A stretch of 64,000 nt of DNA. Origin: Micromonosporaceae bacterium (lineage in GTDB: Bacteria; Actinomycetota; Actinomycetes; Mycobacteriales; Micromonosporaceae). Positions 26,096 to 42,671 of the stretch are shown in pieces. The DNA is taken from NCBI GenBank assembly GCA_035296325.1, contig DATHBD010000082.1, forward strand, positions 137,771-201,770, in the 5' to 3' direction. The translations under genes and the position numbers were made by a program. The notes beneath the pieces were generated by a model. That model had not been told where the DNA came from. It ran no database searches and saw only the letters and a list, made by a program, of their open reading frames with translations. Numbering within the stretch: position 1 is the stretch's first letter; every line of letters starts with the position of its first letter.

Positions 26096-27367
26096 CTAAA
26101 GATCGCCGTCGATCATGCGGCCGTCGCCGAGGGTGGATGAGCAGCTCGCGGGCTTGCCAACGCAGCTGTCGGTCCACACCGTCGCCAGCTCCGGCCGCCA
26201 TCCGTTGCTGAAGCCGCCGGCGATCGCGTAGCCGCCCTGCGCGGCCGACACGTCGGAGGCCAGCCGCCAGCGCGTCGGGTCGCTGCCCGGCAGGACCGGG
26301 TAGTAGACGTGGTAGTGCAGTTCCGGAATGGCTTTCCAACCCGCCGGGCACCCCTTGCCCGGGGTCACGTACGCCATGTGGCGCATGAAGTTCGGCGTGC
26401 CGGTGGCGGCGCCGTCCCAGCACTGCGGAAACGCCAGGTTCAACACGACCGCGTCGCCCACCGCGCACGACGGGATCGTGGCGGACCGCACGTAGGCGTT
26501 CTCGCAGCCCCAGTCGGCGTGCTCCTGCCGACCGCTCGCCGACGGGTTGCCGGCCACCATGCGCAGCCCGGCCGGCAGGGGCACCACCTGCTCCGGCCGC
26601 ACCCCGCCGTACCCGTTCTGGTAGTAGACGGAAATGGCACGGGGCGCCAGCGGGGCGCCGGTCGCGGTGTCGATGACCGCCGGAGTCCAGTACGCCGAGC
26701 GGTCGGCGATGCCGCCCTTGCAGGTGGAGTTGCCGGATCCGGCGATGCTCTGCGCGGTCGATGTCGCCCCGGTGCCGGTGTTGCCCCAGAACATGTTCAG
26801 GTACGAGCTTCCCGGTCGGCCCGGATGCAGCACCGGGTCGTCGGGGGCCATGTGGGAGTACAGACAGGCGGTGCGGAACCAGCCCTGTCCATCGTCGCTC
26901 GCCGGCGGGCGGTGGCCCGTCTGGCGCACCCGCAGCTGAGCCGATCCGGCGGAGCCCGCCGGGATCTTCGTCGGGTCGAAGCGCACGCCTGGCGGTGTCC
27001 CGGGACGTTGCGCCAGGGTCGGTGTTGCGGATGCGGGCCGGCTTGCCGCACCGGACGGCGTGCCCGGCTTCGCCGGGTCACCGAGCACCGGGTCACCGAG
27101 CGCCGGGTCACTGAGCGCCGGACCCGGTGGCGCATCGAGAGACTCCGGGGCTGCGGGGGGAGCCAGATGCGGCCCTGCCTCGCTGCGCAGCGACGACCAC
27201 ACCGGCACCGACACCGCCAGCACCACGGCGGCCAGGACCGTCCCGGCGATCCGCCTCATTCGGCGGCGCGCGACCATGCCGCCGGCCACCTCGATCATCT
27301 CCCGGGGCCGTGCCGGCACGTCGGGCACCGCGTCGACCAGCAGCCGTCGCAGCTCTTCGTTGCTCAT
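26096..27367 (-). CDS. Membrane-anchored DUF1996-like protein (paralogue 2), in anti-sigma position downstream of the ECF sigma factor
   Basis: 'MSNEELRRLLVDAVPDVPARPREMIEVAGG' is a short cytoplasmic N-terminus, then TM 'IAGTVLAAVVLAVSVPVW', then a P/A-rich linker and a domain 'SYLNMFWGNTGTGATSTAQSIAGSGNSTC...FPQCWDG...YHVYYPV...GGFSNGW'. Its ATG overlaps the sigma-factor stop (ATGA). Confidence 0.5.
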   Translation of the reverse strand: MSNEELRRLLVDAVPDVPARPREMIEVAGGMVARRRMRRIAGTVLAAVVLAVSVPVWSSLRSEAGPHLAPPAAPESLDAPPGPALSDPALGDPVLGDPAKPGTPSGAASRPASATPTLAQRPGTPPGVRFDPTKIPAGSAGSAQLRVRQTGHRPPASDDGQGWFRTACLYSHMAPDDPVLHPGRPGSSYLNMFWGNTGTGATSTAQSIAGSGNSTCKGGIADRSAYWTPAVIDTATGAPLAPRAISVYYQNGYGGVRPEQVVPLPAGLRMVAGNPSASGRQEHADWGCENAYVRSATIPSCAVGDAVVLNLAFPQCWDGAATGTPNFMRHMAYVTPGKGCPAGWKAIPELHYHVYYPVLPGSDPTRWRLASDVSAAQGGYAIAGGFSNGWRPELATVWTDSCVGKPASCSSTLGDGRMIDGDL

Positions 27368-27879
27368 CGGGCCACCTCCTCGACGTCGGGAATCCTCAGA
27401 TCTGTGTCGGCGCGCAACGCGGCCAGGGCCCGGGCGGCCTGCACCTTGACCGTGCCTTCGGAGCAGCCCAGGACGTCGGCGGTGGCAGTGATCGACAGGT
27501 CCTCGACGTAGCGGAGCACCACCACCGCCCGCTGTTGGCGCGACAACCGCGCGAGCGCCCGGCGGACGACATCGCGGGTGGCGAAATCGCCGGCCACATC
27601 GCGGTGGTCGCCGATCTCGGGCAGGTCCGTCGACGGCACCTCGAAACGCCACCGGCGGCGGCGCCACGACATGTACGTCGAGAACAGCGCCTGCCGGACG
27701 TACGCCTCCGGGTTGCCGCCGGCGGCGATTCGCTGCCATCGCGGCCACACCTGGGCCAGGACCGTCTGCAGCAGGTCCTGGGCCCGGTACGAGTCGCCCG
27801 TGAGCAACCACGCCGACCGCAGCATCGCGGGCGAGCGGGCAGTCACGAATTCCTCGAATCCGTCCGGGGGTGTAGGCAT
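27364..27879 (-). CDS. ECF-subfamily RNA polymerase sigma-70 factor
   Basis: 'FEEFVTARSPAMLRSAWLLTGDSYRAQDLLQTVLAQVW' is region 2. 'LSRQQRAVVVLRYVEDLSITATADVLGCSEGTVKVQAARALAALR' is the region 4 HTH. ATG at 27879 with a GGAGG RBS, 171 aa. The track ORF is over-extended. Confidence 0.8.
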   Translation of the reverse strand: MPTPPDGFEEFVTARSPAMLRSAWLLTGDSYRAQDLLQTVLAQVWPRWQRIAAGGNPEAYVRQALFSTYMSWRRRRWRFEVPSTDLPEIGDHRDVAGDFATRDVVRRALARLSRQQRAVVVLRYVEDLSITATADVLGCSEGTVKVQAARALAALRADTDLRIPDVEEVAR

Positions 27880-28053
27880 GCGTTCCTCCACCCACCCAAG
27901 CGCGTTGGCAGTGCCGGGGGGTAAACAGACGCAAGGGCAGAGACGGGACTTTTTTCGGCGACCGGCGCAGGGACCATATCGCGCCACGCCGCGGTCAGAA
28001 CCGGGACCGGACCTGCGGCCCGGAGCTGCCGGAGAGCACTCGGACCCAGTCCC

Positions 28054-30069
28054 CTACCTGAGCGGCCCGCCGGGGCGCTGGGAGACTACGGCGGCGCCGT
28101 CAAGCTCCGGGACGGCCGCGCCGTCGACGCTGAACCGGCCCTGGAGCATCATCGCCCGCAGCTGGCTGACGGGGACCGGGCGGGCATAGTGGAAGCCCTG
28201 CGCGATGTCGCATCCCATCAGCTTGAGCGCCGCACTGTGCTCGGCGCGCTCCACTCCCTCGGCCACGACGGTCAGCCCGAGGTTGTGGCCGAGATCGATA
28301 GCGCCGCGAACCAGGATGGCATCGTTCTCGTCCTCCGTCATGCCCAGCACGAAGGAACGATCGATCTTGAGCTCGTCCACCGGGAGCCGCTTGAGGTACG
28401 CCATCGAGGAGTAGCCGGTGCCGTAGTCATCGACGGAGAGCCGGATGCCCAGCCGGTGCAACTCGGTCAGGATCGTCATGGCGAGCCCGGTGTTGGCCAT
28501 GATCGCGGTTTCCGTCACCTCCAGCCGCAGCAGTGCCGCCGGCACCCCGTACTCCTCGAGCAACCCGTGAACGCGTTCCGGCAGCGTGGTGTCGAGCAGG
28601 CACCGCGGCGACAGGTTGACCGCCACCTGCACCTCCACGCCGTCGTCCAGCCACGCCCGCACGTCGACCAGCGCGATCCTCAGTACATGGGTGGTTAGGC
28701 GGTTGATCAGGCCGGTGCCCTCCGCGACGGGGATGAACTCGCCCGGCGGCACGAGCCCGCGGGTGGGGTGCTGCCAGCGCACCAGCGCCTCCATGCCGGA
28801 CAGCTCGCCCAGCTCGAGGCTCACCTTCGGCTGGTAGTACACGACCAGCTCGTCCTCGCGATCGAGCGCCCGGCGCAGGTCGCCGAGCAGCGCTAGCCGG
28901 GTCGGGCTCTCCACGTGCAACGCCGGGTCGTAGACGACGATGCCGGTCCTGCCGTCCTTGGCGCGGTACATCGCCACGTCGGCGTAGCGCATCAGCTCGT
29001 CGACGGTGCCGCCGTGCGCGGACGTGACGACCACGCCGATGCTGGCCTCCACGTCGACCGTCAGGGCGTCGTCCATGACGAACGTCTGGTGCAGGGCGTG
29101 CAGCACCCGCTCGGCAAGTTCGCCGGCGCTGTCGGCGTCGGTCCGGGGAAGCAGCACGGCGAACTCGTCTCCGCCGAGGCGGGCCACCGTGTCGGCCGCC
29201 CGCACCGCCTGCCCCACCCGGTTCGCCACCTGGCACAGCAGCTGGTCGCCGTAGTGGTGTCCGAGCGCGTCGTTGACCTCCTTGAACCGGTCCAGGTCGA
29301 ACACCATGACAGCAACCGCCTCGCCCGTGCGGGCGGCGCCGGACAGGGCCTGTCCCAGCCGGTCCGCGAACACGGTGCGGTTGGGCAGGCCGGTGAGCCG
29401 GTCGTGCAGCGCCTGGTACTCGCTCTTGCGCGACTGCCGTACCAGCTCACGCTGGTAGCCGAGGATGACCAGGCCGAACGCCGCGAGCATGCAGAGCCCG
29501 ACGGCGAAGCCGGCCAGGGTGGCGACGTACACCAGTCGCTCGACCCGTTCCAGTTCGCGCACCGCCCGTGCGGCCGCCACGATGTGGACGTCGGCCGCCG
29601 CCTGCACGTCGCCGCTGATCCGATCGAACGCCGGGTCGGTCTCGGTATTGTCGATCTCCAACTCGAGCGCGGCGTCACCCGCGTCGACCGCCCGGAACAA
29701 CCGCTGCACGGACTGGTAGTACTCGGTGTGCCGCGCCTCCAGGCGCGCCACACCGGCCCGTTCCTCGGCACTTCCCCATTGCCGCACGTCGTCCAGGGCG
29801 AGGGCCAGATCCAGGCTCGCCTGCTTGTGCCGCGCCTCGACCTCCGGGCCTGGTTCCAGCCGGTACTTGCGCTCCAGCGACTCCTCCGCCGCGACCGCCT
29901 CCTTGGCCCGCACGTACGCACCGGCCAGGGTGGTGGACTTGGTCACCGCCGCGGCGGACCGTCGGGTGCTGGTGACTCCGACGAGGCTCAGCGCGGTCAG
30001 GGCGAGCAGGGTGACCGCAAGCCCGGCCGCTGCGGCCCGGCCGGCACCGCTCGGCTTAGCCATCACCAT
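28054..30069 (-). CDS. Membrane sensor GGDEF-EAL protein (diguanylate cyclase/phosphodiesterase) with periplasmic helical sensor domain
   Basis: TM, then about 170-aa extracytoplasmic helical region, then TM. Then 'LTGLPNRTVFADRL...RLGGDEFAVLL' (GGDEF) and 'ELSGMEALVRWQHP...EVTET...DDYGTGYSS...LKIDRSF' (EAL motifs). Start at the ATG at 30069 ('MVMAKPSG'); the longer upstream extension is rejected. Confidence 0.85.
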   Translation of the reverse strand: MVMAKPSGAGRAAAAGLAVTLLALTALSLVGVTSTRRSAAAVTKSTTLAGAYVRAKEAVAAEESLERKYRLEPGPEVEARHKQASLDLALALDDVRQWGSAEERAGVARLEARHTEYYQSVQRLFRAVDAGDAALELEIDNTETDPAFDRISGDVQAAADVHIVAAARAVRELERVERLVYVATLAGFAVGLCMLAAFGLVILGYQRELVRQSRKSEYQALHDRLTGLPNRTVFADRLGQALSGAARTGEAVAVMVFDLDRFKEVNDALGHHYGDQLLCQVANRVGQAVRAADTVARLGGDEFAVLLPRTDADSAGELAERVLHALHQTFVMDDALTVDVEASIGVVVTSAHGGTVDELMRYADVAMYRAKDGRTGIVVYDPALHVESPTRLALLGDLRRALDREDELVVYYQPKVSLELGELSGMEALVRWQHPTRGLVPPGEFIPVAEGTGLINRLTTHVLRIALVDVRAWLDDGVEVQVAVNLSPRCLLDTTLPERVHGLLEEYGVPAALLRLEVTETAIMANTGLAMTILTELHRLGIRLSVDDYGTGYSSMAYLKRLPVDELKIDRSFVLGMTEDENDAILVRGAIDLGHNLGLTVVAEGVERAEHSAALKLMGCDIAQGFHYARPVPVSQLRAMMLQGRFSVDGAAVPELDGAAVVSQRPGGPLR

Positions 30070-30303
30070 GTCACTCCGTCGGTCCGCGCCAAGGGCATCG
30101 CAGGTGCCCGTTGACCATGGATCGGCCGCCAGCGGGCCAGGATGAGCACATTCGGCCGCCCGTTGCGCGCGGCTGTCAACATGGCGTCGTGACATCCGAA
30201 CCGGTCCCCGCGCGTACCGCAATGTCGATATGCTGCCGGCTCGGCGCGTCCGCCCGGGCTTCGGGGCGCCGCTGGCAGCGGCGTTGAGGGGACTGACAGG
30301 CGA

Positions 30304-30996
30304 ATGAGTGCGTTCGTTGCCGCGGCCCTCGGCGTTCCCACCGTCTTCCTGACGTTCCTGCTTATCGTCGTCATCGGCTACTGGCTGGTGGTCCTGCTGG
30401 GCGCCGGCGAGATCGACGCGCTCGACGGCGCGGAGGGCGAGATCGGCGAAGCCGGCCACGGCACGAACGGCGGCCTGTCCGGCGGCCTGTCCGGCGCCCT
30501 GGCAACGGTGGGGCTCGGCGGGGTGCCGGTGACCGTGGTGCTCTCGTTGCTGATCGCCGTCGCCTGGTTCGTCAGCCTGATCGGGACGGTGCTGCTCGGG
30601 CACCTGACCCTGTCGACGCCGCTGCTGGCCGCCGCCGGCCTGGCGGTGCTCATCGCCGCCGGGCTCGTGGCCGTCTTCACGGTGCGCCTGCTCGTTCTGC
30701 CGATCCGGCGGATGTTCTCGGGCGGTGCCGCGCCGTCCCGCGCCGACTTCGTCGGCCGGCCCTGCGTGATCCGCACCGGCCGGGTCGGGGCCGACTTCGG
30801 GCAGGCAGAGGTGACCGCGGGTGACGGGTCCTCCGCGGTCGTCCAGGTCCGCCAGACCGGCAACGAAGCCCTAACCGCGGGCAGCGTGGCCCTCATCTAC
30901 GACTACGACCCGGATGGTGAGTTCTTCTGGGTGCTGCCCCGCAGCGCCGCCACGGGTCCCGAACTCCCCGGCACCGAACCCCAAAGGAACTCCTGA
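30304..30996 (+). CDS. NfeD-like membrane protein (YuaF-type short NfeD with C-terminal OB-fold)
   Basis: 3-4 TM helices, then 'GRPCVIRTGRVGADFGQAEVTAGDGSSAVVQVRQTGNEALTAGSVALIYDYD', a beta-rich OB-fold typical of NfeD. Its stop overlaps the flotillin ATG (TGATG). A 17-nt perfect palindrome (cgccgctggcagcggcg, 30267-30283) lies 20 bp upstream. Confidence 0.6.
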   Translation: MSAFVAAALGVPTVFLTFLLIVVIGYWLVVLLGAGEIDALDGAEGEIGEAGHGTNGGLSGGLSGALATVGLGGVPVTVVLSLLIAVAWFVSLIGTVLLGHLTLSTPLLAAAGLAVLIAAGLVAVFTVRLLVLPIRRMFSGGAAPSRADFVGRPCVIRTGRVGADFGQAEVTAGDGSSAVVQVRQTGNEALTAGSVALIYDYDPDGEFFWVLPRSAATGPELPGTEPQRNS

Positions 30997-33005
30997 TGGA
31001 TGTGCTCAACATCGGCTTCGGCGTACTGCTCGGCGTCGTGCTCCTCGTCCTCATCGCCCTCGCCTTCCTCGTCGCCCGACTGTTCCGCAAGATCGAGCAG
31101 GGCAAGGCCCTGATCGTCTCCAAGGTGCGCCGGGTCGATGTCACGTTCACCGGCGCCATCGTCCTGCCGGTGCTGCACAAGGCCGAGGTCATGGACATCT
31201 CGGTGAAGACCATCGAGATCGAGCGCAGCGGCAACGAAGGGCTGATCTGCCGGGACAACATCAGGGCCGACATCCGGATCACGTTCTTCGTCCGGGTCAA
31301 CAAGACCGTGGAGGACGTCATCAAGGTCGCCCAGGCCATCGGCACCGCCCGGGCCAGCGACGAGACCACGTTGCAGGAGTTGTTCAGCGCGAAGTTCTCG
31401 GAAGCCCTGAAGACGGTCGGCAAGCAGCTCGACTTCGTGGATCTCTACACCCAACGCGACGAGTTCCGCGATCAGATCCTGCGGGTCATCGGCACCGACC
31501 TCAACGGCTACAGCCTCGAGGACGCGGCCATCGACTACCTCGAGCAGACCCCGATGCACCGGCTCGACCCGGCCAACATCCTCGACGCCCAGGGCATCCG
31601 CAAGATCACTGAGTTGACCGCAATCGAGCATGTCCGGACCAACGAGTTCCAGCGCAACGAGGAAAAGGAGATCACCCGCCAGAACGTCGACGCGCGGGAG
31701 GCCATCCTCGAGTTGCAGCGCCGGCAGACCGACGCCGAGACCAAGCAGAACCGCGAGATCGAAACCATGCGGGCACGGGAGCAGGCCGAGATCTCCAGGG
31801 TCCAGGCGGAGGAGCGGCTCAAGGCCCAGACGGCCCATATCCGCACCGACGAGCAGCTCGGCATCCAGAACGAGAACCAGGCCCGGGAGATCGCCGTCGC
31901 GCAGAAAAACCGGGAACGCGTCATCGCCATCGAGACCGAGCGGATCGAGAAGGACCGCCAGCTCGAGATCATCGCCCGGGAACGCGAGACGGCGTTGTCC
32001 ACCATCTCGAAGAACAAGGAGGTGGAGACGGAGAAGCGGGCGATCGCCGAGGTGATCCGGGAACGGATCGCGGTGGACAAGACCGTGGCCGAGCAGGAGG
32101 AGAACATCAAGCGGCTGCGCGTCGTCGAGGAGGCGGAGCGCACCCGCCAGGCCGTGATCATCGCGGCGGAGGCCGAGGCGCAGGAGGGCCTGGTCAAGGA
32201 CATCAAGGCGGCCGAGGCCTCCGAGTTGGCCGCGCGGCACAAGGCCCGGGAGGACCTGGTCCTGGCGGAGGCACGCCAACAGGCCGCCGAACTGGACACC
32301 CGGGCGAAGATCCGCCTCGCCGAGGGACACCAGGCGGAGGCCGCCGCCGCCGGGCTCGCCGAGGTGCAGGTCCGCGAGCGCGACGCCGCGGCCACCGAGA
32401 AGGTCGGTCGCGCCGAGGCGGTGGTGGCGCGCGAGATGGCGCTGGTGGCCGCGGACGCGGTGCGGGACAAGCTCAAGGGCGAGGCCGAGGGCCTCACCGA
32501 CAAGGCAGCCGCGATGGCCGCCCTGGACTCCGCGAGTCGCGAGCACGAGGAGTACCGCCTGCGGCTGGAAGCGGAGAAGGAGATCCGGCTGGCCAGCATC
32601 GACGTGCAGCGGCAGATCGCCGACGCGCAGGCCTCCGTGGTCGCCGCGGGTCTGGAGAAGGCGAACATCGACATCGTGGGCGGCGACAGCGTCTTCTTCG
32701 ACCGGTTGATGAGCTCCATCACCATGGGCAAGAGCGTCGACGGGTTCGTCGAGCACTCCGATGTCGCGAAGGCGCTCGGCGGCCCGTGGTTGGACGGCTC
32801 GGGGAACTTCGGGCAGGACCTGACCCGGCTGCTCGGCTCGCTCAACAGCAACGACATCAAGAACCTGACCCTCGCAACGCTCCTCGGCCAACTGATCAAG
32901 GCCGGCGGGTCGGACGCCGGCAAGCTCCGTGAGCTGTTGAGTACCGCGCATCGGCTCGGCGTTGCGGAGGCGCCCGTCGCCGCGCTCGCCACGTCGAGGC
33001 AGTGA
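30996..33005 (+). CDS. Flotillin-family SPFH/band-7 protein (FloT/YqiK-like)
   Basis: N-terminal TM 'IGFGVLLGVVLLVLIALAFLVA'. SPFH domain 'KALIVSKVRRVDVTF...DISVKTIEIERSGNEGLICRDNIRADIRITFFVRV'. Then a long E/A/R-rich coiled-coil 'flotillin' region. 669 aa. Confidence 0.85.
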   Translation: MDVLNIGFGVLLGVVLLVLIALAFLVARLFRKIEQGKALIVSKVRRVDVTFTGAIVLPVLHKAEVMDISVKTIEIERSGNEGLICRDNIRADIRITFFVRVNKTVEDVIKVAQAIGTARASDETTLQELFSAKFSEALKTVGKQLDFVDLYTQRDEFRDQILRVIGTDLNGYSLEDAAIDYLEQTPMHRLDPANILDAQGIRKITELTAIEHVRTNEFQRNEEKEITRQNVDAREAILELQRRQTDAETKQNREIETMRAREQAEISRVQAEERLKAQTAHIRTDEQLGIQNENQAREIAVAQKNRERVIAIETERIEKDRQLEIIARERETALSTISKNKEVETEKRAIAEVIRERIAVDKTVAEQEENIKRLRVVEEAERTRQAVIIAAEAEAQEGLVKDIKAAEASELAARHKAREDLVLAEARQQAAELDTRAKIRLAEGHQAEAAAAGLAEVQVRERDAAATEKVGRAEAVVAREMALVAADAVRDKLKGEAEGLTDKAAAMAALDSASREHEEYRLRLEAEKEIRLASIDVQRQIADAQASVVAAGLEKANIDIVGGDSVFFDRLMSSITMGKSVDGFVEHSDVAKALGGPWLDGSGNFGQDLTRLLGSLNSNDIKNLTLATLLGQLIKAGGSDAGKLRELLSTAHRLGVAEAPVAALATSRQ

Positions 33006-36000
33006 GCGGGCAGGTGGCCGACCCCGCCGCTCCCGGTGCCGCTCCCGCCGCTCCCGGGGCCGACAGGGGGACCGTTCCCGGCGCGACGGCGGCCCCGCGC
33101 GACGCTGACCGGAACGGCGCCGAGCCGTCCGTCGGCACCGGACTGGACGCGGGCACCTACGAGGTGCTCCGGGGGCGCCTGCGCACCCAGGTTGCCGAGC
33201 TCGGCCGGCGGGCGGAGGCGCTCAACGCCCGCCGCCTGACGACGTTCGGCAGCACCGAACTGAGCCTGCTCGGCACGGAGCGGATCCGCACCGAGCACAA
33301 CTGCGTGCCCCGCGACATCGTCTCGGTGGGCGGGCGGATGCTGTTCGGGTACAACGTCTTCATCGGCCTCAAGGCCGAGACGTCGGTCGACGATGTGTTC
33401 TCGCTGCACCACTTCGCCCGGGCGGAAGGGGCCGGCGCGGAGGCCGGCGCGGGCACCGCGGCCGGCAAGGCGGCATTCCGGTTCGAGGACGCGGCCGCCG
33501 ACGAACTGCCCGGCCTGCTGCGCGCCGCCCAGTTCCAGCGCGACTTCGCCGAACTGTACCGCTACTACCGGGAGACCCGGCTGGTCCAGCTCCGACGCCT
33601 CGACGGTCGGCTGCTGGCCATCTTCCAGACGAGTCCCCGCATCGACGACATCCGGGTACTGCGGTGGCGGGTCGACACCTCGGGCGCGGTCAGCTATCTG
33701 GACAACCGGGGCGAGCGCGACCACACGTTCCCGCCGTCACACGACTTCGAGTGGCTCGAAACCACGCGGGACAACCACGTGCTGGGGCGACACCCACACA
33801 TCTCAATCGATGACGAGGTCTTCGTCGAGACGGTCGGCGGCAACCTCACCGTGAAGGTGGAGAACAACACCGAGTCCGGGGAGGGCGTCTACAGCGAGCC
33901 GGTCGAGGAGCCGCTGCAGAGCCTCGCCGACGCCGACGTGTCGTACGCCAGGGTGGGGCCGCTGATCCTGCTCCGGATCCGGCCGTACAAGGAGACCCAG
34001 TGGCGGCACCTGGTCTTCAACACCCGGACCCGGGCGGTGGTGCGACTCGACAGCATCGGGCAGGCATGCCAGCGCCTGCCCGAGGATCACGGGATCATCT
34101 TCCCCGGCGGGTACTACCTGTCCACCGGCGCGACGAAGACGTTCGAGACGGACGTGGCGAGCCTGGAGTTCGAGCGGATGATCCGCTCCGCGAACGGCGA
34201 GGACGTGCTCTACGTCTTCCACGCCCGGGCCGAGGGCCGCAGCCTGCTGCTGTCGTACAACGTGATCCGCAAGGAGATCGCCAACCCGATCCCGTGCCAC
34301 GGCTACTCGCTCTTCGACGACGGCACGCTTGTCGTCTTCCGGGCCACCTCCGAGGAGCCGACCCGGGTGCACCCGATGCAGGTCTGGCAGACGCCGTACC
34401 AGTCCGACACCTACGCGGCGGCGCAGCCGGTGGGCACCGGGCCGCTGGAGCGCATCGGCAACGCCGAGCTGGTCCGTGGCATCTCCGACTGCCTTTCGCT
34501 GGGGCGCATGGTCGAGGAGATGGCCCCCTCCGTGGCGGTCTTCGAGGCGCTCATCGCGACCTGTGCCAAGATTTTCGACCACTACCACTGGCTTGGTGAA
34601 TCCGAGCTCGGTGATCTCCGTGCGCCGTTGGCGGACGTGCGGGCCACCGCGGAACAGGTCCTCGACGAGTACGAGACGGTGCAGACCCTGACCGCCCGCG
34701 CCGCCGCTGACCTCGCCACCGCCGCAGCCGAGATCACGTCGATGATGCGGCTGGCCCGGGCCGAGGCGCCGCGCACCGCCGACGCCTGGGTCACCCAACT
34801 CGCCGAGCTGCGACGCGCCCAGGGCCGGCTGATCACCCTGCGGGAGCTGCGTTACGTCGACGTCGCCGAGATCGACCGGCTGGCCGGCGATCTCGCCGCC
34901 GAACTGACCGCGGCAGCGCAGCGCGCGGTCGAGTTCCTGCAGGGCGACGACGCATTTGCCGGCTACCACGCGCAGGTCGATGGGTTGATCGCCGACGCCG
35001 AGGCGATCGCCACCGTCGCGGACGCGACTCCGGTCACCGAACGGCTCACCGCGCAGGCCGAAGGCCTGGAGATTGTGACCGAGGTGGTCGGGTCCCTGGA
35101 CGTCGCCGCGGCCACGGTCCGGACCGCCATCCTGGCCCGGATCGGTGAGGTGCTCGCCGGCGTCAACCGGGCCCGGGCGACCCTGGACGCCCGCCGCCGG
35201 GAGTTGCGCTCGGCTGAGGGCCGCGCCGAGTTCGCCGCCGAATTCGCCCTGCTCAGCCAGGCGGTCACCGGCGCGTTGGCGACTGCCGACACGCCGCAGC
35301 GCTGTGACGAGCAAGTGGGTCGGCTCCTTCTGCAGCTGGAGAACATGGAGTCGCGCTTCGCCGACCTGGACGACTTCGGCGCGCAGTTGGCCGACAAGCG
35401 CGAAGACGTGTACGAGGCCTTCGCGTCGCGCCGGCAGGCCCTCGTCGACGAGCGGGCCCGGCAGGCCGGCCGGCTCAGCGACTCGGCGGAGCGGATCCTG
35501 CGCAGCGTGCAGCGCCGGGTCGCCGGCCTGCGCTCGCTGGACGAGGTGAACACGTACTTCACCTCCGATCCGATGATCACCAAGCTGCGCGCGGTGGGCG
35601 AACAGCTGCGCGCCCTCGGCGACGCTGTCCGGGCCGAGGAACTCGAGGGCCGGGTCAAGGCCGCCCGCCAGGAGGCCGGCCGGGCGCTGCGCGACCAACT
35701 GGACCTCTACAGCGACGGCGGCGAGACGATCCGACTGGGGCGGCACCGGTTCGCGGTCAACACCCAGTCCATCGACCTCACCCTGGTGCCGCAGGACGGC
35801 CGGATGAGCCTGGCCATCACCGGGACGGACTACCGCGCCCCCGTGCACGACCAGGCGTTCCAGGCCACCCAGCCGTACTGGGAGCAGTTGCTGGTCTCCG
35901 AGTCACCGCAGGTGTACCGGGCGGAGTACCTGGCCACCGCCATCCTCGCCGACGCCGAGCTGGGCGGCGGTGGGCTCAGCGTGGACGCGCTGTACCGGGC

Positions 36001-38167
36001 GGCGGCCGATGCCAGCCTGGAGGATCTGGTCCGCCGGGTCGCCGAGAGCCGGTACGACGAGGGGTACGTGCGCGGCATCCACGACGCCGACGCCACCGTG
36101 ATCCTGGACGCGCTGCTGCGGTTGTACGCCGGCGCCGGTCTGCTGCGCTACCCGCCGGCGGCGCGCGCGATGGCGCAGGTGTTCTGGTCGTTCGGCTGCG
36201 CCGAGCCGACCCGGGCGGCGTGGACGACGCGGGCGGTGTCGCTGGCCCGGGCCCGAACCATGTTCGGCCGGCCGACGGACAACGGCGCGGACGCGGCCGA
36301 CGACCTACGCGCCGAGGTGGCCGCCGCGCTGACATCGTTCGCTTCTGGCGCCCGTCTGGCCGGGTGGGCCGGCGGCGACCTCGACCTGAGCGCCGAGTAC
36401 CTCACCGGGGAACTCGCCTGCGCACCGCTCGGCTTCGTCACCAGCGCTGCGGCCCGGGCCCTGCTCGACGACTTCCGCACCGCGCTCGGCGGGCCGCAGT
36501 CCAAACAGGGCGCCGAGTTCACCGAGGACCTGCGCGCGTTGGGGGACGACCTGGCCGCCCGGGCGCAGCTGGTCACGGCATGGCTCGGGGCGTTCCTCTC
36601 CACCACCGCCAGCCCCACCTCAGCCACCCCCGCGGACGGGAACGCCGGGGCGGCACGGCGGTACTCGGCCGCCGACCTGCCGGAAGCCGTCGCCATCGAG
36701 CTGTGCGGCGCCGCCCTCCCCCGGCACGACTCCTCGGCGAGCCTGTCCGAAGTCGTCGTCGGCCTGCTCGGCTCGCATCCACGCGTTCTCGATCGACGGC
36801 TGCGCCTGAACATCGACGAGGTGCTGACCCGGACCAGGCGGTTCCGCACGGTACGGGTGCCGGCCTTCCGCGCGTACCAGCGCCAGCGCACCGAGCTCCT
36901 CGCCGCCCAGCGGGAGCGGCTGCGGCTGTCGGAGTACCAGCCGTCGGTGATGAGCGCCTTCGTCCGCAACCGGTTGCTGGATGAGGTCTACCTGCCGCTG
37001 ATCGGGGCCAACCTGGCCAAGCAGCTCGGTGCGGTCGGTGCCGGCAAACGCACCGACCAGATGGGGCTGCTCCTGCTCATCTCGCCGCCGGGGTACGGCA
37101 AGACCACCCTCATGGAGTACGTGGCGAGCCGGCTCGGTCTGGTGTTCGTCAAGGTCAACGGACCTGCCCTGGGGCACGCGGTCACCTCGCTCGATCCCGC
37201 CGAGGCACCCAACGCCACCTCGCGGCACGAGGTGGCGAAGATCTCCTTCGCCCTCGAGCTGGGCAGCAACGTGCTGCTGTACCTGGACGACATCCAGCAC
37301 ACCTCGCCGGAGCTGCTGCAGAAGTTCATTTCACTCTGTGACGCCCAGCGCCGGATGGAGGGGGTGTGGGACGGCCGGACCCGCACGTACGACCTGCGCG
37401 GCAAGCGCTTCGCGGTCTGCATGGCCGGCAACCCGTACACCGAGTCCGGCCAGCTCTTCCGCGTCCCGGACATGTTGGCGAACCGGGCCGACGTCTGGAA
37501 CCTGGGCGACGTGCTCGCCGGCCGGGAGGATCTCTTCGCGCTCAGCTACGTCGAGAACGCACTGACCTCCAACCCGGTCCTGGCGCCGCTGTCCACCCGG
37601 GACCGCGCCGACATCGGGCTGCTGGTGCGCCTCGCCGACGGCGACGACACGGTCCGGCCGGACCAGCTCAGCCATCCGTATGCGGCGGCGGAGCTGGAGC
37701 AGATCCTGGCAGTGCTGCACAAGGTGCTCCGGGTGCAGCGCGTGGTGCTCGCCAACAATCAGGCGTACATCGCCTCGGCGGCACAGTCCGACGCGTCCCG
37801 CACCGAGCCGCCGTTCCTGCTCCAGGGCTCGTACCGCAACATGAACAAGTTGACCGAGCGCATCGTCGCGGTGATGAACGACGACGAGCTGGACGCCGTC
37901 ATCGACGACCACTATCTCGGCGAGGCGCAGACGCTCACCTCCGGCGCCGAGGCCAACCTGCTGAAGTTCGCGGAACTGCGCGGCACGATGACGGCCGAGC
38001 AGGCCCGGCGGTGGGCCGAGGTGAAGGCCGGCTACCTGCGGGCACGTGCGCTGGGCGGGGACGCCGACGACCCGATGAGCCGCGCGGTGGGCGCCGTCGG
38101 CCTGGTGGCCGATGGTGTCCGGGCCGTCGAGCACGCCATCCGTCGGGCGGCGGAGCGGCCGGCCTGA
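33002..38167 (+). CDS. Giant (1721 aa) flotillin-operon protein with C-terminal AAA_5-type (MoxR/McrB/dynein-like) ATPase domain; function unknown
   Basis: GTG start overlaps the flotillin stop (GTGA). About 1250 aa N-terminal with no recognisable motifs and a long helical middle. C-terminal 'LLLISPPGYGKTTLMEYV' (Walker A), 'VLLYLDDIQHTSPELLQKFISLCD' (Walker B), and '...RFAVCMAGNP', the Asn-Pro ending characteristic of AAA_5 modules. Confidence 0.65.
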   Translation: MSGQVADPAAPGAAPAAPGADRGTVPGATAAPRDADRNGAEPSVGTGLDAGTYEVLRGRLRTQVAELGRRAEALNARRLTTFGSTELSLLGTERIRTEHNCVPRDIVSVGGRMLFGYNVFIGLKAETSVDDVFSLHHFARAEGAGAEAGAGTAAGKAAFRFEDAAADELPGLLRAAQFQRDFAELYRYYRETRLVQLRRLDGRLLAIFQTSPRIDDIRVLRWRVDTSGAVSYLDNRGERDHTFPPSHDFEWLETTRDNHVLGRHPHISIDDEVFVETVGGNLTVKVENNTESGEGVYSEPVEEPLQSLADADVSYARVGPLILLRIRPYKETQWRHLVFNTRTRAVVRLDSIGQACQRLPEDHGIIFPGGYYLSTGATKTFETDVASLEFERMIRSANGEDVLYVFHARAEGRSLLLSYNVIRKEIANPIPCHGYSLFDDGTLVVFRATSEEPTRVHPMQVWQTPYQSDTYAAAQPVGTGPLERIGNAELVRGISDCLSLGRMVEEMAPSVAVFEALIATCAKIFDHYHWLGESELGDLRAPLADVRATAEQVLDEYETVQTLTARAAADLATAAAEITSMMRLARAEAPRTADAWVTQLAELRRAQGRLITLRELRYVDVAEIDRLAGDLAAELTAAAQRAVEFLQGDDAFAGYHAQVDGLIADAEAIATVADATPVTERLTAQAEGLEIVTEVVGSLDVAAATVRTAILARIGEVLAGVNRARATLDARRRELRSAEGRAEFAAEFALLSQAVTGALATADTPQRCDEQVGRLLLQLENMESRFADLDDFGAQLADKREDVYEAFASRRQALVDERARQAGRLSDSAERILRSVQRRVAGLRSLDEVNTYFTSDPMITKLRAVGEQLRALGDAVRAEELEGRVKAARQEAGRALRDQLDLYSDGGETIRLGRHRFAVNTQSIDLTLVPQDGRMSLAITGTDYRAPVHDQAFQATQPYWEQLLVSESPQVYRAEYLATAILADAELGGGGLSVDALYRAAADASLEDLVRRVAESRYDEGYVRGIHDADATVILDALLRLYAGAGLLRYPPAARAMAQVFWSFGCAEPTRAAWTTRAVSLARARTMFGRPTDNGADAADDLRAEVAAALTSFASGARLAGWAGGDLDLSAEYLTGELACAPLGFVTSAAARALLDDFRTALGGPQSKQGAEFTEDLRALGDDLAARAQLVTAWLGAFLSTTASPTSATPADGNAGAARRYSAADLPEAVAIELCGAALPRHDSSASLSEVVVGLLGSHPRVLDRRLRLNIDEVLTRTRRFRTVRVPAFRAYQRQRTELLAAQRERLRLSEYQPSVMSAFVRNRLLDEVYLPLIGANLAKQLGAVGAGKRTDQMGLLLLISPPGYGKTTLMEYVASRLGLVFVKVNGPALGHAVTSLDPAEAPNATSRHEVAKISFALELGSNVLLYLDDIQHTSPELLQKFISLCDAQRRMEGVWDGRTRTYDLRGKRFAVCMAGNPYTESGQLFRVPDMLANRADVWNLGDVLAGREDLFALSYVENALTSNPVLAPLSTRDRADIGLLVRLADGDDTVRPDQLSHPYAAAELEQILAVLHKVLRVQRVVLANNQAYIASAAQSDASRTEPPFLLQGSYRNMNKLTERIVAVMNDDELDAVIDDHYLGEAQTLTSGAEANLLKFAELRGTMTAEQARRWAEVKAGYLRARALGGDADDPMSRAVGAVGLVADGVRAVEHAIRRAAERPA

Positions 38168-38257
38168 CCGACCGCTGGACGCCGCGGACAAACGCCTCAC
38201 CCTCCCCCGCTACCGGCCGATCTGAGGGGTGCGACCAGCGGAGGAGGTCTGAGCGGG

Positions 38258-40624
38258 ATGGCTGTGCCCCCAAGCCGGCTGGCCGGCCTTCGCGTGGTCG
38301 CGTCGCGCGCCCGCCGGACCGACCCGCTGCTGCTCACCTCGTTCTCGATCGTGATCTTCGCGATCGTGTGGTTCGGAGTGAACCTCGACCGGCCCAGGGC
38401 GCTGTGGCTGCTGTGGCTCCCGTCCCCACTGGCCGCCGCGATGTTGACGGCGGTGTTCCAGCGCGTCGCCCGAACCGAACGGCTACCCGCCCTCACCCGC
38501 AGGTTCTGGCGGCACCTCAGCTTCTCCGCGGCGATGGTGGGCGCCGGTTCGCTGGCACAGGCCTACGACGCGCTGCAGGATCCGCTTGCCGGCGGCCAGC
38601 GCACCGGACCGGCCATGTTGATCTCTTACACCTGCGCGATCGCGATCGTCATGTGGGCCCTCCTCCGCCTGCCGCTGGGTGTCCAGGCGCGTGGCGAACG
38701 CCTTCGGGTGGCGCTGGACGCCGGCACGGTCATGCTGGCGGCCGCGGCGTTTCTCTGGCACTTCAACACCCGGCCGCTGCTGGCACTCGGCGCAGACCGG
38801 AGCACCACCCTGATCACGTCCGCGATGGTGGCCCTCCTCGCCCTGCTGGCCGTGTTCGCCATCGCCAAGGTGGTGCTGTCCAGTCACGCCTTCATCGACC
38901 GGGCCGCGCTCCGGCTGCTGGCCTGTGCCATCCTGATCGGCAGCCTCTCCGCACTTCCGCAGCAGTACCTCTCCAGCCAGCCGCACCTGATGTCGACCCA
39001 GCTCAGCGTCCCCGCCGTGATGTTCCTCGCGGCATGGGCAGGGGTCCGGCAACGCGCCAGCGGGCAGCTACCGGCCGGCACCTTTGCAGACGTCGGCCGG
39101 CGACCGTTCACCGTGCTGCCCTACCTCGCCGTTGCGGCTGTCGACGCATTGCTTCTGACGCTGCTCTGGTCGCCGAACGACGATGAACTGGTGATCGGGG
39201 TGGTGGCGGTCCTGCTCACCGGACTCGTCGTGCTGCGGCAGGTCACAGCGTTCCAGGACAACCGGCGACTGCTCGATCAGCTTGACCACGGGGCGACCCA
39301 CGACACGCTGACCAATCTTCCCAACCGGCGACTGTTCAACGAACGGCTGCAGCACGCGCTGACCTCCGGGACGCCCCGGACGGTGAGTGTGGCGCTCATC
39401 GACCTCGATGACTTCAAGGTGGTGAACGACAACCTGGGGCACGAGATCGGCGATGCGCTGCTCGTCGCCGTGGCGCAGCGACTCACCACCTGCGTCCGGG
39501 CCCCGCACACCGTGGCGCGGCTGGGCGGTGACGAGTTCGTCCTGATCCTCGACGAAGTCGGGCCGGCCGCCGCGTCAGCCACCGCGGAAACCATCACCGC
39601 CGCGCTGACCGAACCGATCGCCGCGCAGGGCCATGAGCTGTTGATCCGGGCCAGCATCGGGATCGCCGACGGTGGCACCGGCGACGAGCCGAGCCAGCTC
39701 CTCCGCCGGGCTGACATCGCCATGTACGCCGCCAAGAACCTCGGTGGCAGCCGGCATCTGCACTACCAGGCCGGCATGGCAGGTACCGTGGCGAATCACG
39801 CCCAGTTGGGCGTCGAGCTGCGCCAGGCCATCCTGGCGGAGCAGTTCGTTGCCCTGTACCAGCCGATCGTGAGCCTGGACAGCGACGCACAGATCACCGG
39901 CGTCGAGGCGCTCGTCCGCTGGGTTCATCCGGTGCGCGGCATGCTCCCGCCCAGCGAGTTCATCCCCCTGGCCGAGCGCACGGGCCTCATTGTCCCGCTG
40001 GGCCGTTGGATCCTCCGCCACGCGTGCTTCCAGCTCGTTGCCTGGACCGCGGAGCACGGTGCGACGAACCCGGCGTTCCTGAACGTCAACGTGTCCGCCC
40101 GGGAGTTGCGCGAGGGGGGGTACGCCGACGACGTCGCCGCGGCACTCGCCGACTCGGGGTTGGCGCCGGACCGCCTCACCCTCGAGATCACCGAAACGAC
40201 GATCTTCGAGCTCGGAGCGTCAGTGACGAATCTCCAGCACCTGCGCGACATGGGCGTGCGGATCGCCCTCGACGACTTCGGCACCGGGCAATCCACCCTC
40301 ACCCAGCTGCAGAACTGCCCGGTCGATCAGCTCAAGCTGGACCGGTCTTTCACCCGGGCAACGGTGAACACGGAGCCGACCATCGCCGCCGCGGTGCTGC
40401 AGCTGGCTCGGGTCCTGCGTCTGGCCATCATCGCGGAGGGCGTCGAGACCGCCCAGGAGGCGCACCGGCTGCGCCACATCGGCTACGAGACCGCGCAGGG
40501 CTACTTCTTCGCTCGCCCCATGCCGGCCGAGGAACTCAACGATCGGCTTCGGGCGCAGGCGCACACGCCGTGCCTCAGCGGCGCCGGCGGCCGGATAGCG
40601 ACGCTACCGGTCACGGCCCACTGA
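38258..40624 (+). CDS. Integral-membrane (about 8 TM) GGDEF-EAL protein
   Basis: Multi-TM N-terminal sensor region. 'LTNLPNRRLFNERL...RLGGDEFVLIL' (GGDEF). 'ITGVEALVRWVHP...EITET...DDFGTGQSTL...LKLDRSF' (EAL). Confidence 0.85.
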   Translation: MAVPPSRLAGLRVVASRARRTDPLLLTSFSIVIFAIVWFGVNLDRPRALWLLWLPSPLAAAMLTAVFQRVARTERLPALTRRFWRHLSFSAAMVGAGSLAQAYDALQDPLAGGQRTGPAMLISYTCAIAIVMWALLRLPLGVQARGERLRVALDAGTVMLAAAAFLWHFNTRPLLALGADRSTTLITSAMVALLALLAVFAIAKVVLSSHAFIDRAALRLLACAILIGSLSALPQQYLSSQPHLMSTQLSVPAVMFLAAWAGVRQRASGQLPAGTFADVGRRPFTVLPYLAVAAVDALLLTLLWSPNDDELVIGVVAVLLTGLVVLRQVTAFQDNRRLLDQLDHGATHDTLTNLPNRRLFNERLQHALTSGTPRTVSVALIDLDDFKVVNDNLGHEIGDALLVAVAQRLTTCVRAPHTVARLGGDEFVLILDEVGPAAASATAETITAALTEPIAAQGHELLIRASIGIADGGTGDEPSQLLRRADIAMYAAKNLGGSRHLHYQAGMAGTVANHAQLGVELRQAILAEQFVALYQPIVSLDSDAQITGVEALVRWVHPVRGMLPPSEFIPLAERTGLIVPLGRWILRHACFQLVAWTAEHGATNPAFLNVNVSARELREGGYADDVAAALADSGLAPDRLTLEITETTIFELGASVTNLQHLRDMGVRIALDDFGTGQSTLTQLQNCPVDQLKLDRSFTRATVNTEPTIAAAVLQLARVLRLAIIAEGVETAQEAHRLRHIGYETAQGYFFARPMPAEELNDRLRAQAHTPCLSGAGGRIATLPVTAH

Positions 40625-40651: not shown

Positions 40652-42460
40652 CTAGCTGATCCGAACGAACCGCCACTGCTGCTGAACGGCGCCGGTGTCG
40701 GTCCACTGGACGGCGGCCGAACCATTCGTGGTCCCGCTGCCGTTGTCCAGGGCCTTGCCGCTACGCCTCGAGATCAGCTTGAACGCGCCGCCCGCCGCCG
40801 CGGTGATGGCCCACTGCTGCGGGTCGCCGCCGTTGTCGGTCCACTGCATCGCGGGCGCCCCCTCGGTCAGGACGTAGCCGTTGTCCAGGGCCTTGCCGCT
40901 GTGCCGGCTGATCAGCTTGTAGTAGCCACCGCTGAGTGCGGTGACGGTCCACTGCTGCGCCGTGCCGCCGTTGTCGGTCCACCCCACGACGCCAGCGCCG
41001 TCGGTGGTCGAGCTGGCGTTGTCGAGCGCCAGGCCACTGTGCACGCTGACCAGCTTGTACACCCCGCCCGAGACGATTCCGGTGGCAGGTGCACCGGAGC
41101 CTGCGACGGGAACCCCGGACACCTCGACCACGACGACCGACACGTTCGGGTTGGGCGCTGCGGTGGGCACCCGGACGTTGATGAACCCGCCGCTGACCGT
41201 GTACGTCAGCGACGTACCCGGGCTGTTCAGCAGGTAGACCCGGCTGATCGTGTTCTGCAGCGTCGGGATCTGCAGGGTGCCGCCGGTGGGCCAGTTGAAG
41301 ACGTGGGCGTAGAGCCGGCCGTTCTTCTTGGTGTAGCGGCCCCAGGACGGCTCGGAGCTGAACGGGCTGGCCGTCGCTCCGTAGATGCTGTCGCCGTAGA
41401 TGCCCATCCAGGAGCCGATGGCGTTGAGCAGGTTCACCGACCCGGTGGGTACCGCGCCGTTGCCCATTGGCCCGATGTTTAGCAGGTAGTTCCCGTCCCG
41501 GGAGACCACCGTCGCCAGCTCCTGGATCAGCGTCCGCGCCGACTTGTACGAGTTCTCCCGGCCGGCGTCGTAGCCCCACGCGCCGTTCAGCGTCGCGCAG
41601 GTCTCCCACGGGCGGGACAGCGGCCGTGCCGGCACGGTCTGCTCCGGGCACTCGAAGTCACCGAGGCCGGTGTGGCGCTTCACCCGCTCGTTGACGATCA
41701 GATTGGGCTTGCGGGCGATCAGCCAGTTGTACAGGTCCTGACCGTCGGCCCGGTTCCACCAGTCGGCGAGCGTCGGGGTGGCGCGGTCCACGCACCAGTC
41801 CCCGTCGAACCACATCACCGCGGGGTCGTAGCGGTCCAGCAGTTCCTGCAGCTGCGCCTTCATGTCGCGCACGTAATTGGCCTTGGCGGTCATCGACGAC
41901 ACCGTGGAGAAGACCGTGTCGGTCTTGCGCAGGGTCTGCGACGGGTGGCTCCAGTCCAGGATGGAGTAGTAGAGGCCGAACACGATGCCCTGGCGGGTGC
42001 ACTCCGCCTTCAGCTGGGCCAGCAGGTCGGCCTTGTACGGGGTGTAGGCGGGCAGGGTGTACGGGCGGCCCGCGGTGTCGGTGAAGCTCGCGACCTTGGA
42101 ATCCCACATGGCGAAGCCCTCGTGGTGCTTGGCCGTGATCACCAGGTACTTCATCCCGGCGGCCTTCGCCAGCCCGACGATGCTGGCGGCACTGAAGCTG
42201 GTCGGGTTGAACCGGGCCGAGATGTCACGGTGGTAGTTGGCCTTGGCCCAGGTCTCGTTGGCGAAGACCCACTCGCCGCGACCCGCGTACGAGTACGACC
42301 CGAAGTGGATGAACATCCCGAACCGGGCCGCGTACCACCAGTTCATCTTCGAGGGCACGGTGTAGGCGGATGCCTCGGTGGCACGCAGGGCGAGCGGCAC
42401 GCCGATGGCGGCCATCCCGGTCGCCGCGGCGCCCAACTTGATCAATTGCCGGCGACTCAT
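40652..42460 (-). CDS. Secreted GH29 alpha-L-fucosidase with C-terminal ricin-B lectin domains
   Basis: Tat signal 'MSRRQLIKLGAAATGMAAIGVPLALRATEASA'. 'ARFGMFIHFG...KYLVITAKHHEGFAMWDS...MWFDGDW' is the GH29 core. C-terminal 'QQWTV...QQWAI...QQWRF' are ricin-B QxW repeats. Start at the ATG at 42460; the GTG at 42472 is possible. Confidence 0.8.
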   Translation of the reverse strand: MSRRQLIKLGAAATGMAAIGVPLALRATEASAYTVPSKMNWWYAARFGMFIHFGSYSYAGRGEWVFANETWAKANYHRDISARFNPTSFSAASIVGLAKAAGMKYLVITAKHHEGFAMWDSKVASFTDTAGRPYTLPAYTPYKADLLAQLKAECTRQGIVFGLYYSILDWSHPSQTLRKTDTVFSTVSSMTAKANYVRDMKAQLQELLDRYDPAVMWFDGDWCVDRATPTLADWWNRADGQDLYNWLIARKPNLIVNERVKRHTGLGDFECPEQTVPARPLSRPWETCATLNGAWGYDAGRENSYKSARTLIQELATVVSRDGNYLLNIGPMGNGAVPTGSVNLLNAIGSWMGIYGDSIYGATASPFSSEPSWGRYTKKNGRLYAHVFNWPTGGTLQIPTLQNTISRVYLLNSPGTSLTYTVSGGFINVRVPTAAPNPNVSVVVVEVSGVPVAGSGAPATGIVSGGVYKLVSVHSGLALDNASSTTDGAGVVGWTDNGGTAQQWTVTALSGGYYKLISRHSGKALDNGYVLTEGAPAMQWTDNGGDPQQWAITAAAGGAFKLISRRSGKALDNGSGTTNGSAAVQWTDTGAVQQQWRFVRIS

Positions 42461-42671
42461 TTCGATGGCCACGCCACACCCCTCGTCTGCCCGCTGCGCC
42501 CAGCGTGCTCGGATTATTGCAGGAATTCATCCGACGATAAGGTCCCACTACCGGTCGGTCAAGGCGTACATCGGCGGCCGTCGTTCAACCAGCACCGTCA
42601 GCCAGGCATTTCGCGGACGTTTCAGAAAGGGACGACTTTCCGCTTCGACACACCGTGGCGATCCCGGGCGG

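Follow-up and report, generated by a model that had tools for sequence, protein, structure and literature searches.

A flotillin gene, its NfeD-like partner and a giant AAA+ ATPase gene as a conserved three-gene module in a Micromonosporaceae bacterium and its relatives

Does a giant ATPase encoded directly behind a flotillin gene belong to the flotillin system and, if so, what might it do there? The question is raised by a 64,000-nt stretch of DNA from a Micromonosporaceae bacterium (assembly GCA_035296325.1, contig DATHBD010000082.1, positions 137,771 to 201,770 of the forward strand; hereafter the window), which has a GC content of 70% and carries three consecutive plus-strand open reading frames (ORFs). 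A preliminary description of the window, made from the letters alone, had read them as genes for an NfeD/YuaF-like membrane protein, a flotillin and a giant ATPase. The three genes and the junctions between them are:

30304-30996, plus strand: gene 1, predicted to encode a divergent YqiJ/YuaF-type (DUF1449, NfeD2-like) membrane protein of 230 aa, from its ORF, hydropathy, homologs and an hhalign comparison
30994-30998, plus strand: TGATG junction, in which the gene 1 stop TGA and the gene 2 start ATG share 1 nt
30996-33005, plus strand: gene 2, predicted to encode a YqiK-type flotillin of 669 aa, from a BLASTP match to YqiK, homologs, hydropathy and composition
33002-33005, plus strand: GTGA junction, in which the gene 3 start GTG overlaps the gene 2 stop TGA
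33002-38167, plus strand: gene 3, encoding a giant soluble ATPase of 1721 aa with matches to Pfam DUF3686, DUF7902 and AAA/AAA_5

All three reading frames and both overlaps can be read in the sequence as the preliminary description gave them. In addition, GC at third codon positions is 0.88-0.93 in genes 1-3, as expected for real genes.

In order to determine whether the three genes travel together, we analyzed two sets of related loci, counting in each from the ATPase side, i.e. among loci carrying the ATPase gene. The first set came from a scan of 185,579 species genomes (one genome per species), which yielded at least 590 loci, the best 80 of which were examined. The second came from a metagenome scan ranked on a distant family member, and comprises 80 loci with GC contents of 33-72%. 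In the genome set, the flotillin gene lies directly upstream of the ATPase gene in all 76 loci that have upstream DNA, and a gene 1 homolog precedes the flotillin gene in approximately 62 of these 76. Among these 76 loci are some from Myxococcus, from a Clostridia metagenome-assembled genome (MAG) and from proteobacterial MAGs, delta-proteobacterial ones included. In the metagenome set, 65 loci have more than 2.3 kb of upstream DNA; the flotillin gene adjoins the ATPase gene in 61 of them, or in 63 if a gap of up to ~740 bp is allowed, and gene 1 is also present in 58 of the 61. When all flanking ORFs of the 80 actinomycete-type loci were clustered, no further broadly conserved neighbour was found. 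Across several phyla, the three genes thus keep their order and are almost always neighbours, which supports the view that the NfeD-like/YqiJ protein, the flotillin and the giant AAA+ protein make up a single conserved unit. An adjacency confined to this strain, which would have spoken against the preliminary description, is not what either scan revealed.

The protein encoded by gene 1 has three transmembrane segments by Kyte-Doolittle hydropathy, an acidic loop, and a C-terminal domain at approximately residues 145-215 that appears beta-rich in the family alignment. Scans against Pfam, NCBIfam and PADLOC gave no match for this protein, and Pfam NfeD (PF01957) matched neither it nor its family members. 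Since Pfam is silent on the protein itself, its identity rests on the comparison with YqiJ and on its homologs. The family profile aligns with E. coli YqiJ at an hhalign probability of 95% (E 3.5e-8, 138 columns), while the pairwise BLASTP comparison with the same protein gives E 2e-4. Furthermore, Pfam YqiJ_N matches 4 of 26 family members weakly, and some databases name the homologs DUF1449 or ‘OB-fold-containing’. The similarity and topology identify gene 1 as encoding a predicted divergent partner of the YqiJ/YuaF type, termed ‘NfeD2’ in the naming scheme of Hinderhofer et al. 2009 (PMC2636767). The earlier reading of a multi-transmembrane NfeD/YuaF-like protein agrees with this.

The gene 2 protein is laid out as an N-terminal anchor (residues 1-34, its single hydrophobic segment by hydropathy), an SPFH domain (~36-190), a coiled coil (~200-560) and a C-terminal tail; residues 200-560 consist to 59% of E, K, R, Q and A. 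Again, the Pfam, NCBIfam and PADLOC scans gave no match for the protein, so that its identity rests on the comparison with YqiK and on homologs. BLASTP aligns it with E. coli YqiK at E 2e-38 and 28% identity over 460 aa spanning the anchor, the SPFH domain and the coiled coil, which bears out the earlier description of a 669-aa flotillin. Homologs at 80% identity match PF01145 (Band_7) and are named flotillin or YqiK; the flotillins of one related locus (L086) and of plasmid pQBR103 (see below) also match PF01145. A sequence search of the PDB gave a marginal match to QmcA. Over the SPFH domain, ATPase-linked flotillins across phyla are 62% identical to the gene 2 protein, as opposed to 29% for E. 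coli YqiK. By this measure, the ATPase-linked flotillins are a distinct and tightly constrained subfamily.

The third protein is the least familiar of the three. Its parts are as follows:

33197-34588, plus strand: DUF3686 region, residues 66-529 (Pfam E 2.8e-222), an N-terminal helix followed by a beta-propeller
34442-35701, plus strand: long-helix stalk, residues 481-900, from AlphaFold2 (AF2) secondary structure with a predicted local distance difference test (pLDDT) score of ~80-90
34949-35203, plus strand: DUF7902, residues 650-734 (Pfam E 1e-28), part of the stalk
35774-36931, plus strand: middle domain, residues ~925-1310, a small beta unit and a helical domain, confidently modelled
36938-38041, plus strand: AAA+ module with C-terminal helical lid, residues ~1313-1680, from invariant alignment columns and weak Pfam matches
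37082-37105, plus strand: Walker A motif SPPGYGKT, residues 1361-1368, invariant among diverse homologs
37274-37300, plus strand: Walker B motif LYLDDIQH, of which LDDIQH is invariant among diverse homologs

The preliminary description had recognised only the AAA_5 module; it overlooked DUF3686, which covers the N-terminal ~460 residues, and DUF7902. The family is defined by PF12458, PF25472 and a C-terminal P-loop module in a protein of ~1600-1900 aa, and the gene 3 protein has all of these features. It has more than 6000 homologs, and a separate count among 1.84 billion representatives gave 787 clusters at 50% identity; the homologs agree with it in length and domain string. Identity is ~70% across actinomycete orders, and 55-64% between phyla for the AAA module. 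No hydrophobic segment was detected by hydropathy, and lacking a transmembrane segment the protein is presumably cytoplasmic.

An AF2 model covers residues 1-1100 (mean pLDDT 69.5) and contains a helix, ~26 beta-strands at residues 88-463 (6-7 blades), very long helices at 481-900, and then a small beta unit and helices. A Foldseek search with this model returned intraflagellar transport complex A (IFT-A), nucleoporins, clathrin heavy chain, Ctf4 and prolyl oligopeptidase, with E values of 7e-6 to 1e-2 and low TM-scores. What the model supports is a propeller with a helical stalk behind it; any more specific assignment would go too far. No structural relative of the middle domain was found.

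At the C-terminus, the P-loop is matched weakly by several Pfam families, namely: AAA_5 (27-32 bits), AAA (26-28), AAA_22 (24-26) and RuvB_N (22-25). AAA, AAA_5 and AAA_22 match about equally in all 22 diverse family members examined. The PDB sequence search with gene 3 gave P-loop-level matches only, and a profile of the AAA module matched PDB entries only in the Walker A region, those entries (NVL, Rix7 and p97) being classical AAA proteins; the model of the AAA core is too poor for clade-specific inserts to be read. For these reasons the label ‘dynein/MoxR-like’, given to this domain in the preliminary description, is unspecific and unsafe. Beyond the two Walker motifs, the invariant positions include NPYTE (1477-1481), R1495 (the arginine in ‘NRAD’) and QGSYR (1608-1612). 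The invariance of Walker A, Walker B and an arginine argues for a predicted active nucleoside triphosphatase (NTPase).

The trio has a wider context in other phyla, and this context has been described before. Among the metagenome loci, a PspA_IM30 gene lies directly upstream of gene 1 in 22 of 80, and a DUF2170 gene (YjfI-type, CesT-like) lies upstream of pspA in 21. PLDc_2 genes are found downstream of the trio in 10-11 loci; TelA genes occur in 8 loci and rhomboid genes in 8. Ravi et al. (mSystems 2024, PMC11237479; preprint 2020) described an operon that joins CesT/Tir-PspA with three further genes, including one for a three-transmembrane YqiJ/YuaF protein, with a phospholipase D (PLD) member in some Proteobacteria; the Dokdonia genes are listed in the same order in their Table S3. 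In the neighbourhood of Dokdonia donghaensis ANH61663.1, this operon shares with the window the order of YqiJ-like, Band-7/flotillin and ATPase genes and an ATPase architecture of propeller, coiled coil and AAA+ module, and the divergent gene 3 homologs sit in exactly its PspA/DUF2170/PLD context. It differs in that the window has no PspA gene, CesT-like gene or PLD gene and thus corresponds only to the ‘abbreviated’ form, to which Ravi et al. (PMC11237479) devote one sentence, proposing that such operons work with PspA encoded elsewhere. Judged by architecture and context, the trio of the window appears equivalent to the Dokdonia operon, and what the window carries is a widespread membrane-associated module in its ‘abbreviated’, three-gene version.

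It follows that the giant third partner is not the unrecognised association for which it had been taken: it was already described by Ravi et al. (PMC11237479), and the association is published comparative genomics rather than a new discovery. A literature search yielded no paper on DUF3686/PF12458, and none tying the name ‘DNA repair ATPase’ to flotillin or SPFH proteins. Neither the window nor any of the 80 actinomycete-type loci has a member of the PLD, TelA or rhomboid families, or of the families that accompany the trio on pQBR103 (see below).

As a separate observation, the Pseudomonas fluorescens SBW25 megaplasmid pQBR103 (L162, NC_009444.1 85112-97641) carries a long same-strand cluster that ends in the trio, in the order PspA, rhomboid, DUF2491, DUF350, DUF1190, glutathionylspermidine-synthase-like, YqiJ-like, SPFH gene and giant ATPase. 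This cluster joins a polyamine/PspA group to the flotillin trio and is experimentally tractable.

How tightly are the three genes coupled? In the window, the only alternative start of gene 3 before its conserved N-terminal helix is a GTG at 33014; as this lies just 8 nt past the flotillin stop, genes 2 and 3 are tightly packed on either start. Scans for promoter and terminator consensus sequences over 29900-38500 gave no match. The 1-nt overlap of genes 1 and 2 (TGATG type) recurs in 12 related loci, with gaps of up to ~180 bp elsewhere, and the GTGA overlap of genes 2 and 3 recurs in 10. In Streptomyces and many other relatives, a spacer of 45-400 bp separates the flotillin and ATPase genes. 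The start/stop overlap is accordingly a lineage-specific trait, and it is doubtful that obligate co-translation, as the preliminary description had it, characterises the family.

A GC-rich hairpin of very high stability (-30 to -48 kcal/mol) is present in nearly all of these spacers. It is found in L034, L036, L040, L041, L044-L046, L052, L055, L061 and L065-L068 (at approximately positions 7800-8000 of the loci), as well as in L004, L005, L021, L029, L053 and L063. The stem co-varies among the Streptomyces loci, with GAGCTGCCG/CGGCAGCTC in some and GAGCCGCCG/CGGCGGCTC in others, and the loop is often CACAGGGGA. The hairpins have no T-tract, and an Rfam search of the relatives' hairpins assigned them to no family. 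The element may set the flotillin:ATPase ratio, acting either as an attenuator within the operon or by stabilising the mRNA; the hairpin spacers hint at attenuation or mRNA stabilisation giving more flotillin than ATPase.

What, then, could the ATPase do? We consider that it most probably serves the flotillin/NfeD scaffold as an ATP-driven partner during envelope stress, a reading to which we assign a probability of roughly 0.55. By analogy with the SPFH assemblies QmcA-YbbJ, FloA-NfeD and HflK/C, the flotillin and its NfeD-like partner would build a cage or clamp on the cytoplasmic side of the membrane. Cages are known for QmcA-YbbJ (cited in PMC13086221) and for HflK/C, whose cages hold and control the AAA protease FtsH (PMC12048511). 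The giant ATPase would dock on this scaffold via its propeller or stalk and oligomerise via its AAA+ domain. The ATP-dependent step could be turnover or disassembly of the scaffold, remodelling of PspA polymers (with pspA either elsewhere in the genome or, in some lineages, linked to the trio), or extraction of a client from the microdomain, and the likely setting would be envelope or membrane stress. In S. aureus, the FloA-NfeD pair needs no ATP to hold and stabilise unfolded proteins (PMC11222466), and there is thus room for a partner that uses ATP. In this respect the earlier suggestion of an ATP-driven machine at the flotillin membrane is retained as the best reading.

Related arrangements are the SPFH2-NfeD2 operons (PMC2636767), namely yqiJ-yqiK of E. 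coli and yuaF-floT of B. subtilis. They share with the window a gene for a multi-transmembrane NfeD-like protein followed by one for a flotillin with anchor, SPFH domain and long coiled coil. However, E. coli K-12 yqiJ-yqiK has no ATPase gene downstream, and the SPFH identities given above place the window flotillin in a subfamily separate from YqiK. For a possible working mode of the trio, HflK/C-FtsH (PMC12048511) is the best precedent by analogy, as there too an SPFH scaffold and an AAA+ machine work as a functional pair, the machine acting on membrane proteins. The differences should be noted: FtsH is membrane-anchored and has a zinc protease, whereas the gene 3 protein has neither a transmembrane segment nor a peptidase domain, and its homology to FtsH is limited to the P-loop. 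Furthermore, the HflK/C cage is periplasmic, whereas the window flotillin would face the cytoplasm. The Vps4/ESCRT-III and PspF/PspA pairs likewise bring an AAA+ ATPase together with a PspA/ESCRT-III polymer at the inner membrane face; here, that linkage is genomic and holds in some lineages. The gene 3 protein differs in that it lacks an MIT domain and the features of a sigma-54 activator, and neither its sequence nor its fold gives a specific match.

Several observations weigh against an ATP-driven scaffold partner acting in envelope stress. When the window and the 80 actinomycete-type loci were searched with hidden Markov models built from the metagenome neighbours, no PspA or DUF2170 gene was found. 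The AAA+ core, the most conserved part of the protein, is modelled at a pLDDT below 50. Walker B in the family is invariantly DD rather than DE, and the segment between Walker A and Walker B, at the usual position of pore loop 1, is an invariant non-aromatic ‘GHxVxSLDPxxAPNAT’; together these make a classical threading unfoldase doubtful. In addition, 2 of the 65 metagenome loci have the ATPase without a flotillin, and with stable hairpins between the two genes in many relatives, a fixed production ratio need not hold. Finally, our literature search found no experimental work on any member of the ATPase family. As for the two loci without a flotillin, the ATPase gene neighbours BCCT transporter and CAAX protease genes in L099 and a hybrid histidine kinase gene in L130.

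An alternative that draws on the same neighbourhoods is that the ATPase mainly remodels polymers of PspA, the bacterial ESCRT-III, in a Vps4-like manner, with the flotillin and YqiJ-like protein just recruiting it and the actinomycete PspA encoded elsewhere. The gene orders of the divergent loci and of pQBR103, in which PspA directly precedes gene 1 or belongs to the same cluster, are in its favour, as are the proposal of Ravi et al. for the abbreviated operons and a Walker A region resembling the classical AAA clade, which includes Vps4. Nevertheless, we regard it as unlikely, given that the flotillin is the near-universal partner while PspA occurs in a minority of loci and is absent from the window and the actinomycete-type loci, and that the ATPase has no MIT-like domain or specific similarity to Vps4. 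The propeller hits of the Foldseek search also allow a bolder picture, in which the gene 3 protein is a bacterial coat-like machine: a clathrin/nucleoporin/IFT-like propeller and stalk fused to an AAA+ motor that would sit on flotillin cages and bend, pinch or reseal the cytoplasmic membrane with ATP. We give this little credence; if true, it would amount to energy-driven, flotillin-based membrane remodelling distinct from PspA/ESCRT-III and the dynamins.

The module could also be an anti-phage or conflict system, with the propeller as sensor and the giant NTPase triggering membrane or phospholipid damage, through a PLD effector and an SPFH component, and hence abortive infection. The combination of a giant NTPase and a repeat-type sensor domain does resemble the architecture of defence NTPases, PLD genes follow the trio in the 10-11 loci mentioned above, the module is found on megaplasmids, and its distribution among species is patchy (at least ~590 of the species genomes scanned). 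However, the PADLOC scan of the three proteins returned only IetA, with an E value of 0.0036 over 29 residues at the P-loop, which is no real match. Conservation of the ATPase across actinomycete orders and phyla is very high, unlike that of fast-evolving defence genes, the trio is compact and without defence-island neighbours in the 160 loci, and its recurrent partners are envelope-stress genes. Thus, a role in defence seems improbable. Least credible of all is that gene 3 encodes a true DNA repair ATPase whose adjacency to a flotillin gene is incidental. Its basis is the NCBI product name of the homologs, ‘DNA repair ATPase’, which the preliminary description had given correctly, together with the Pfam description of DUF3686 as ‘ATPase involved in DNA repair’ and the weak RuvB_N matches at the P-loop. 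The RuvB models of NCBIfam score only 21-23 bits against cut-offs of 282-299, searches of the protein for DNA-binding, nuclease and helicase domains found none, gene 3 is almost never apart from the flotillin gene, and no paper backing the name emerged from the literature search. The name is an inherited label without support.

Two further features around the trio had been put forward as part of the system, namely a palindrome upstream of gene 1 and the flanking genes. The 17-nt palindrome CGCCGCTG-g-CAGCGGCG is indeed present at 30267-30283, but its suggested role as an operator is rejected. Perfect palindromes with 8-nt arms and a spacer of 0-4 nt number 17 in the window, compared to 18 +/- 4 in Markov simulations, and those with a 1-nt spacer number 4, compared to 4 +/- 1.8. 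Moreover, the palindrome is missing upstream of gene 1 in 54 of 55 related loci, including all Micromonosporaceae relatives; the sole near match, in L057 (Streptomyces), has 2 mismatches and lies ~90 nt upstream. In Streptomyces-type loci, a divergent gene for a PucR/CdaR-type regulator (GGDEF_2 and HTH_30) lies upstream of gene 1, at 3589-4686 on the minus strand of L036 and with equivalents in 32 such loci. The intergenic region shared by the regulator gene and gene 1 contains the palindrome ATTGCCGGnnnCCGGCAAT in L038, L041, L044 and L067, and the Nonomuraea loci L015, L020, L058 and L075 carry CTCAACCnnGGTTGAG in its place. Both ATTGCCGGnnnCCGGCAAT and CTCAACCnnGGTTGAG are better operator candidates than the palindrome of the window.

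The genes that bracket the trio are:

28054-30069, minus strand: GGDEF-EAL membrane protein; hydrophobic segments present, GGDEF and EAL motifs intact
38258-40624, plus strand: GGDEF-EAL membrane protein; hydrophobic segments present, GGDEF and EAL motifs intact

Their presence on both sides had been pointed out before and is correct. As a conserved part of the system they do not stand: none of the 80 related loci in which they were sought has them (0/80), and the bracketing of the operon is probably incidental.

Other genes of the window and its relatives were also observed. Two DUF1996 proteins adjoin an extracytoplasmic function (ECF)-type sigma factor (Sigma70_r2/r4), with ORFs at 24869-26053, 26096-27934 and 27364-27987, all on the minus strand; the latter two ORFs overlap on the same strand, and their gene boundaries need checking. 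Directly downstream of the second GGDEF-EAL gene, the minus strand at 40652-42472 encodes a secreted alpha-L-fucosidase with a twin-arginine translocation (TAT) signal, fused to ricin-type lectin domains. Finally, the flank of a Streptomyces locus carries a cobalamin riboswitch (RF00174, 92 bits; L065 16608-16790, minus strand), which is unrelated to the trio.

The function of bacterial flotillins is still debated, and the characterised FloT, FloA and YqiK systems are without an energy source. A flotillin subfamily with a giant AAA+ ATPase as its almost constant companion makes it possible to test concretely whether such scaffolds are actively assembled, emptied or dismantled, and the trio is also a route by which a link between flotillins and the PspA envelope-stress response may be tested. 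At the same time, the label ‘DNA repair ATPase’, carried by thousands of genomes, misdirects annotation. The module is present in genetically tractable bacteria, namely Streptomyces, Myxococcus and Pseudomonas (there on plasmid pQBR103). The value of the module thus lies in a tractable entry to flotillin function and in the exposure of a misleading database name.

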